Of a DNA stretch of 437 nt, positions 1 through 437 are shown one piece after another (the stretch's first letter is position 1; every line of letters begins with the position of its first letter). The position numbers and the translations under genes were made by a program. The stretch comes from Escherichia coli (GTDB taxonomy: Bacteria; Pseudomonadota; Gammaproteobacteria; Enterobacterales; Enterobacteriaceae): the NCBI RefSeq assembly GCF_003334765.1, contig NZ_QOWT01000123.1; one strand, written 5' to 3'. Under the pieces are notes generated by a model. That model was not told where the DNA came from. It saw only the letters and a program-made list of their open reading frames with translations, and ran no database searches.

Positions 1-437
1 AACAGGTCGTGATGCTTACCGAAGAACTGCTGCCTTATCCGCATAATCCGGCAAGCATTGAGCAAGATCAGGTTGATCTGATCGTCAAAGTTGATCGCGT
101 TGGCGATGCTGCAAAAATCGGCGCTGGTGCTACCCGTATGACCACTAACCCGCGCGAACTGCTTATTGCCCGTAGCGCTGCGGATGTGATTGTTAACTCT
201 GGCTACTTCAAAGAAGGTTTCTCCATGCAGACCGGCACCGGCGGCGCTTCGCTGGCGGTAACCCGTTTCCTGGAAGACAAAATGCGTAGCCGCGATATTC
301 GCGCCGACTTCGCCCTCGGCGGTATTACCGCAACGATGGTTGATCTGCACGAAAAAGGTTTGATCCGCAAACTGCTGGATGTGCAGAGCTTTGACAGCCA
401 TGCTGCGCAATCGCTGGCCCGTAACCCCAATCACATC
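1..437 (+). CDS. citF: Citrate lyase alpha subunit (citrate CoA-transferase, EC 2.8.3.10), internal fragment truncated at both window edges; codon phase begins at nt 3
   Basis: Seen in sequence: the + strand frame starting at nt 3 is open for all 145 codons to nt 437, while the other two + frames hit stops within the first 50 nt (TGA at 8-10, TAA at 44-46). Codon choice is typical of E. coli-like coding DNA (CTG Leu, CCG Pro, CGT/CGC Arg, GGC/GGT Gly, AAA Lys, GAA Glu). Established knowledge, recalled and not searched: the translation, including the segment GFSMQTGTGGASLAVTRFLEDKMRSRDIRADFALGGITATMVDLHEKGLIRKLLDVQSFDSHAAQSLARNPNHI, corresponds to the middle of the ~510-aa E. coli CitF. No start or stop codon lies in the window, so the true gene boundaries are outside it. 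Confidence 0.85.

Follow-up and report, generated by a model that had tools for sequence, protein, structure and literature searches.

The window analysed here, a 437-bp stretch of Escherichia coli DNA taken at its full length, lies entirely inside citF, the gene for citrate lyase subunit alpha. Frame 3 of the plus strand was the sole frame open across the entire window, and its 145-residue translation matched the TIGR01584 profile (citF, citrate lyase subunit alpha) with E = 8.7e-72 over profile positions 181-325. At 242 bits the match scored less than the full-length cut-off of 501, a shortfall due solely to the window encoding a fragment of 145 aa. The window DNA was 100% identical to the annotated citF of E. 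coli FDAARGOS_536, in which it occupies nt 596-1032 of the 1,533-nt CDS. The profile match and the annotated gene place the fragment in the citF family, whose homologs carry PF04223, and bear out the gene assignment made in the initial annotation.

In FDAARGOS_536, citCDEFXG-citT has citF in fourth place and lies beside the divergently transcribed dpiBA. A frameshifted pseudogene of an IS4-family transposase was found just downstream of rna in the window-matching strain (locus L001, 10962-12305). Of 5,426 complete E. coli genomes, 5,422 had a citF match at 95-100% identity and the other four had none; some genomes carried two copies of the segment, and two matches lay on plasmids. The features of the window are as follows, with a slash marking the codon boundary inside each GATC site:

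3..437, plus strand: citF codons 200-344 of 510 (CDS nt 598-1032).
66..69: site 1, GAT/CAG (Asp221-Gln222); in every E. coli allele examined.
75..78: site 2, GAT/CTG (Asp224-Leu225); lost from ~61% of complete E. coli genomes through silent 78C>T (CTG>TTG).
80..83: site 3, ctG/ATC (Leu225-Ile226); lost from the O157:H7-type allele (~24% of genomes) through silent 80G>A (TTA).
93..96: site 4, GAT/CGC (Asp230-Arg231); lost from the K-12/B-type allele (~36% of genomes) through silent 95T>C (GAC).
342..345: site 5, GAT/CTG (Asp313-Leu314); missing from K-12, B and STO_Bone1B because of silent 344T>C.
362..365: site 6, ttG/ATC (Leu319-Ile320); in 10/10 E. coli-labelled sequences examined, absent from E. 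albertii.
71-80 and 338-347: 10-nt direct repeat GGTTGATCTG.
203-430, minus strand: unsupported 75-codon ORF with a TTG start, antisense to citF; it most likely arises from the codon pattern of the sense strand.

An exact search of the 437 bases found GATC at 66-69, 75-78, 80-83, 93-96, 342-345 and 362-365 and nowhere else, the same number and positions as in the initial annotation. The first four sites form a cluster with spacings of 9, 5 and 13 bp. All four lie at codon junctions of the peptide QDQVDLIVKVDR, in agreement with the earlier proposal that the cluster is a by-product of that peptide. One detail of the proposal was wrong: it derived one site from Ile followed by Val, whereas the site at 80-83 spans the Leu225-Ile226 junction. 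Site 5 uses the Val-Asp-Leu codons of site 2, GTT GAT CTG, and the 10-nt repeat exists because this tripeptide is encoded twice with identical codons; the same tripeptide and codon choice therefore account for two of the six GATC. Apart from this pair, the only notable one, the repeat search of the window returned short chance pairs, with no binding-site motif or repeat beyond the codons themselves.

We then compared the number of sites with several null models. In 200 dinucleotide-preserving shuffles of the window, the mean was 1.70 GATC (sd 1.22), and only 1/200 reached six. The initial annotation had expected one or two sites, which was right, and had called the density elevated; this holds against a null of composition only, and the excess becomes smaller once the coding constraint is included. 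Synonymous codons were resampled for the segment EQDQVDLIVKVDRV, in which 4 GATC junctions are possible. The expectation was 1.95 of 4 with an E. coli codon table (P(all four) = 0.049), 2.01 of 4 with the codon usage of the 10 genes in the 12.4-kb locus (P(all four) = 0.051) and 2.25 of 4 with citF's own codon usage (P(all four) = 0.095). Permutation of synonymous codons within citF produced a cluster of four sites in 31 bp, at any place in the gene, in 9% of trials. Under the synonymous nulls the totals were above expectation, with 6 sites in the window against 3.4-4.1 (P = 0.07-0.16) and 11 in the whole gene against 8.7-9.7 (P = 0.21-0.36).

A null that takes codon context into account was built from 250 kb drawn from five other places in FDAARGOS_536, comprising 61,876 codons in long ORFs. 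In these codons, GATC was realised at the four dipeptide types of the cluster with frequencies of 0.585, 0.498, 0.220 and 0.454, and the resulting codon-pair-aware null gave 1.76 expected sites and P(all four) = 0.027. In the same E. coli sample, the GAT fraction of Asp codons was 0.62 before C and 0.61-0.65 before other bases; GAT use is thus independent of the next base, indicating that GAT followed by C is neither favoured nor avoided by E. coli. Taken together, the synonymous shuffle, which the initial annotation had named as a check, gave 1.8-2.3 expected sites of 4 and P(all four) of 0.03-0.10, supporting the reading of the cluster as incidental.

The rarity of such a cluster was assessed in the same 250-kb sample, which contained no other cluster of four GATC in 31 bp. 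Resampling of the 61,876 codons predicted ~1.3 such clusters per genome by chance, so that a whole-genome scan should meet about one without any biology behind it. That no second cluster occurred in 250 kb, and that only about one per genome is expected, is nevertheless a counter-point to the incidental reading. Under the looser definition of Riva et al., four loci were found in the sample, which scales to ~80 per genome against the 76 genes reported. The long-ORF codons also carried fewer GATC in total than synonymous resampling predicted (783 vs 852 expected, sd 24) and more GATC triplets within 31 bp (8 vs 3.4 expected). Fewer but more clustered sites accord with an older claim that GATC is non-randomly clustered in E. 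coli genes, and some GATC clustering in E. coli coding sequence exceeds simple codon choice.

Next, we examined variation of the cluster within E. coli, which proved the most informative part of the analysis. Four cluster alleles were found among nine strains picked across the identity range, and every difference between them was silent. The alleles were counted as exact matches of the 68-bp alleles (window 42-109) in the 5,422 citF-bearing complete genomes, giving the following proportions, which mirror choices of what is sequenced to completion and not natural frequencies:

Window allele: no change; keeps 66, 75, 80 and 93; 2,085 genomes (38%).
K-12/B type: 78C>T (CTG>TTG) and 95T>C (GAT>GAC); keeps 66 and 80; 1,977 genomes (36%).
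O157:H7 type: 78T and 80A (TTA); keeps 66 and 93; 1,282 genomes (24%).
78T-only allele: 78C>T; keeps 66, 80 and 93; 25 genomes.

One or two cluster sites have thus been lost by silent changes in ~61% of complete E. coli genomes. The K-12 window holds three GATC in total, the site at 342 also being lost there via 344T>C, as in B. Across ten E. coli-labelled sequences, third codon positions varied at 3/8 positions inside the six GATC and at 48/138 elsewhere (Fisher P = 1.0), indicating that GATC sites are no better protected than other silent positions in E. coli. The initial annotation had suggested that a by-product would not be conserved beyond what the protein demands, and this is what was found, the silent losses extending to K-12, B and O157:H7.

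The direction of change was read from close relatives. The codons GAT CAG..GAT CTG ATC were present in E. albertii, Escherichia sp. MOD1-EC7003, the sequence NZ_JAATUR010000029.1 (L010, labelled Escherichia coli SCPM-O-B-8794) and most Citrobacter species, and GAT CG at 93 was also present in E. albertii, MOD1-EC7003 and L010. The outgroups therefore show that Escherichia had the 4-site state ancestrally and that the alleles of K-12, B and O157 are derived losses. All six sites were kept in L010 despite ~10% nucleotide divergence, and five in E. albertii. The L010 sequence differed from the window at 43/437 positions and E. albertii at 49, whereas true E. coli strains differed at no more than 19; judged by this divergence, L010 is probably a cryptic Escherichia clade and not E. 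coli proper.

Conservation beyond Escherichia was examined in an ortholog scan of species-representative genomes, which yielded 80 loci. The peptide QDQVDLIV was shared by 27 non-Escherichia species, including Citrobacter, Salmonella, Buttiauxella, Atlantibacter and Hafnia. In these species, within-gene synonymous permutation predicted the total over whole citF closely (275 GATC observed vs 269 expected). The 14-codon segment, however, held 83 GATC against 55.8 expected and ranked in the top 3 of 485 citF windows. In 18 more distant Enterobacterales the segment ranked first for observed minus expected GATC (22 vs 11.2). The Asp221-Gln222 site was realised in 22/27 of the QDQVDLIV species and in 16/18 of the distant Enterobacterales, whose peptide is QDQVDY[IV]V, against 8.2 expected in the latter, and may be under weak constraint. 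Three of the four cluster sites (66, 75 and 80) were common to Escherichia and Citrobacter. In Citrobacter and its relatives, residues 228-229 are Gln-Ile and not Lys-Val, which creates an extra CAG/ATC junction that was realised 18 times against 10.6 expected, and the segment of C. youngae (L016) contained five GATC.

The high rank of the segment was considered as a sign of GATC conservation, but the per-site controls argue against this: Asp codons that form no GATC were equally conserved, and the depletion at other junctions was as strong. The Asp230-Arg231 junction was realised less than expected in the 27 species (4 vs 9.1), as were the junctions at residue 330 (3 vs 11.5), residue 483 (0 vs 7) and residue 488 (5 vs 12.5). 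Where E. coli has GAT at a conserved Asp, the relatives used GAT in a fraction of 0.59 before C and 0.55 otherwise, and the distant group in 0.51 before C vs 0.52 otherwise. By residue, the GAT fraction in relatives was 0.89 at Asp221, 0.96 at Asp224 and 0.21 at Asp230, and Asp234 (GAT GCT, which forms no GATC) was 100% GAT. We attribute the cross-species excess to shared ancestry together with the most permissive junctions, where the variance is largest; junctions behave like one or a few inherited states and not like 27 independent trials, and the most permissive segment therefore varies most.

Enterobacterales carry an orphan Dam together with SeqA and MutH, and Clostridia, Paenibacillus, Prevotella and spirochaetes generally do not. 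In Clostridia, Paenibacillus, Prevotella and one of three spirochaete genomes, the corresponding peptides (e.g. PESQVDY[IV]V) gave 0-0.2 expected GATC, and none was observed. The other two spirochaete genomes kept permissive junctions, with 0.6-1.15 expected and one site each. The comparison of Dam-positive with Dam-negative species is largely uninformative because the Dam-negative species mostly lack the peptide. Within the Enterobacterales, Providencia has the peptide QDEVDYIV and 0 GATC in the segment, a further point against GATC-specific conservation. Over the whole gene, synonymous permutation showed fewer GATC than expected in Cardiobacterium (0-2 vs 5.1-5.7) and in four Providencia species (0-1 vs 3.4-5.3), and the density across their loci was 0.7-1.9 per kb. 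This suggests GATC avoidance in Cardiobacterium and Providencia, for example under a GATC-specific restriction system; for Providencia, a member of the Enterobacterales, the depletion was unexpected.

In a Dam-positive cell, GATC is methylated and becomes transiently hemimethylated after replication. On the evidence above, the citF cluster is in all likelihood a coding by-product, with no sign of selection or of a role in regulating citF. The peptide Q-D-Q-V-D-L-I-V-K-V-D-R has four GATC-capable junctions (Asp+Gln, Asp+Leu, Leu+Ile and Asp+Arg), and the common codons GAT, CTG, ATC and CGC happen to realise all four in this strain. Dam would be expected to methylate the adenines and leave the sites briefly hemimethylated after fork passage, when close pairs could transiently bind SeqA and serve MutH, as would any close GATC pair. 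The initial annotation had called the cluster probably incidental, and the synonymous nulls, the allele polymorphism, the background level of third-position variation and the next-base-independent use of GAT all point the same way.

The strongest competitor of the by-product explanation is an intragenic GATC cluster of the Henaut/Riva type, defined as at least four motifs whose spacing averages less than 18 bp, one pair being less than 8 bp apart (PMC493266). Riva et al. 2004 listed 76 K-12 genes and reported the energy metabolism class as enriched, and their model invokes a block of transcription on a cold or oxygen shift (PMC493266). Applied to citF, the ancestral 4-site cluster would be weakly selected; when left under- or hemimethylated, for example by such a shift, it would damp transcription of this energy-metabolism gene, either by making the duplex more stable or by retaining SeqA. 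The window allele falls within the definition of Henaut et al. 1996 and Riva et al. 2004, and citF belongs to the class reported enriched. The ancestry of the 4-site state in Escherichia, the sites at 66, 75 and 80 common to Citrobacter, the top or near-top rank of the segment in the cross-species comparisons and the over-represented GATC triplets of the genome sample also favour this explanation. Several results speak against it. Only the 4-site allele (38% of genomes) falls within the definition; those of K-12, B and O157 retain 2 sites each, and ~61% of E. coli genomes, these lineages among them, have lost one or two. Because the K-12 allele has 2 sites, citF is absent from the Riva K-12 list, and its score in the K-12 gene table is 0 (PMC493266). 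Henaut and Riva took a cluster shared with Salmonella as a mark of relevance, and the Salmonella subspecies examined had fewer than 4 sites in the aligned segment (3 in S. enterica subsp. diarizonae and 2 in subsp. arizonae). Codon conservation in the segment was not GATC-specific, and the network hypothesis itself is computational only, its function never having been tested experimentally (PMC493266). We therefore regard weak selection on the cluster as improbable.

Published data on Dam and SeqA bear on the same point. A 2025 study showed that occupancy by RNA polymerase and by protein is altered in dam mutants at dense Dam clusters in MG1655 ORFs (PMC11741368). Local transcription at the 15 loci selected in that study, which score 6-7 for Dam site density, was however unaffected by dam deletion except at mnmG beside oriC, which argues against a transcriptional effect of a weakly selected cluster (PMC11741368). 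Like the citF cluster, the dense loci of MG1655 lie wholly within ORFs; citF, citC and citrate are unmentioned in that study (PMC11741368). In SeqA ChIP-chip experiments, binding followed GATC density, with spacings of ~10 and ~20 bp favoured (PMC2912659). The citF pairs that are 9, 13, 14 and 18 bp apart lie near these favoured spacings, and transient SeqA binding after replication would therefore be expected. Stable SeqA targets, of which pyrD and mukF are examples, extend over kilobases at 7-13 GATC per kb, and the list of 12 does not include citF (PMC2912659). K-12 itself carries the 2-site citF allele. The whole of citF has 7.2 GATC per kb in FDAARGOS_536, like its neighbours citG (8.0) and citE (6.6), and unlike oriC and the dnaA promoter it has no link to replication control. 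A literature search combining citF with GATC returned nothing relevant, its one match concerning cytosine modification in a K-12 derivative (bioRxiv 10.1101/2020.05.15.097816).

The silent positions might instead be constrained for a reason other than Dam, such as mRNA structure, codon-pair preference or translation rate, with GATC as a passenger. A local codon preference is hinted at by the retention of GAT at Asp221, at Asp224 and at Asp234, the last of which is part of no GATC site. However, relatives mostly use GAC for Asp230, which belongs to this segment too, and the positions are freely polymorphic within E. coli. A reading in terms of RNA structure was ruled out by the folding z-scores, which were unremarkable (z = -0.69 for 41-120 and -0.67 for the whole window), and an Rfam search of the window gave no match at E up to 1. 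Such a constraint seems very unlikely.

There is a negligible chance that the cluster works as an epigenetic switch in the manner of pap, agn43, gtr or std, with a protein shielding its GATC from methylation by Dam. The citF cluster resembles the phase-variation switches (pap, agn43, gtr, std and sci1) only in having several GATC within a few tens of bp; the GATC of these switches lie in promoter or regulatory regions overlapping Lrp, OxyR, HdfR or Fur sites, whereas the citF sites lie ~660 nt inside the CDS of the fourth gene of citCDEFXG, are polymorphic and are accompanied by no binding-site motif or repeat apart from the codons. A sigma-70 promoter scan of the window found no promoter-like site, and an intrinsic terminator scan of the window found none.

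As a coding by-product, the citF cluster provides a worked negative: it is striking against a composition-only null, but the peptide and ordinary codon usage account for most of it. Intragenic motif clusters should be tested against synonymous and codon-pair-aware nulls, as well as population variation, before regulatory claims are made. The choice of strain also matters, as K-12 would show no such cluster. Persistence of the ancestral state across Escherichia and Citrobacter is the one remaining point that is not trivial. There is a slim chance that codons 221-231 of the ancestral Escherichia/Citrobacter citF form a weakly selected Dam/SeqA-responsive element and a true member of the GATC network. 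If so, the element would tune how the citrate-fermentation operon is transcribed following replication or a cold or oxygen shift, and lineages in which citrate fermentation matters less, such as K-12, B and O157:H7, would be losing it.
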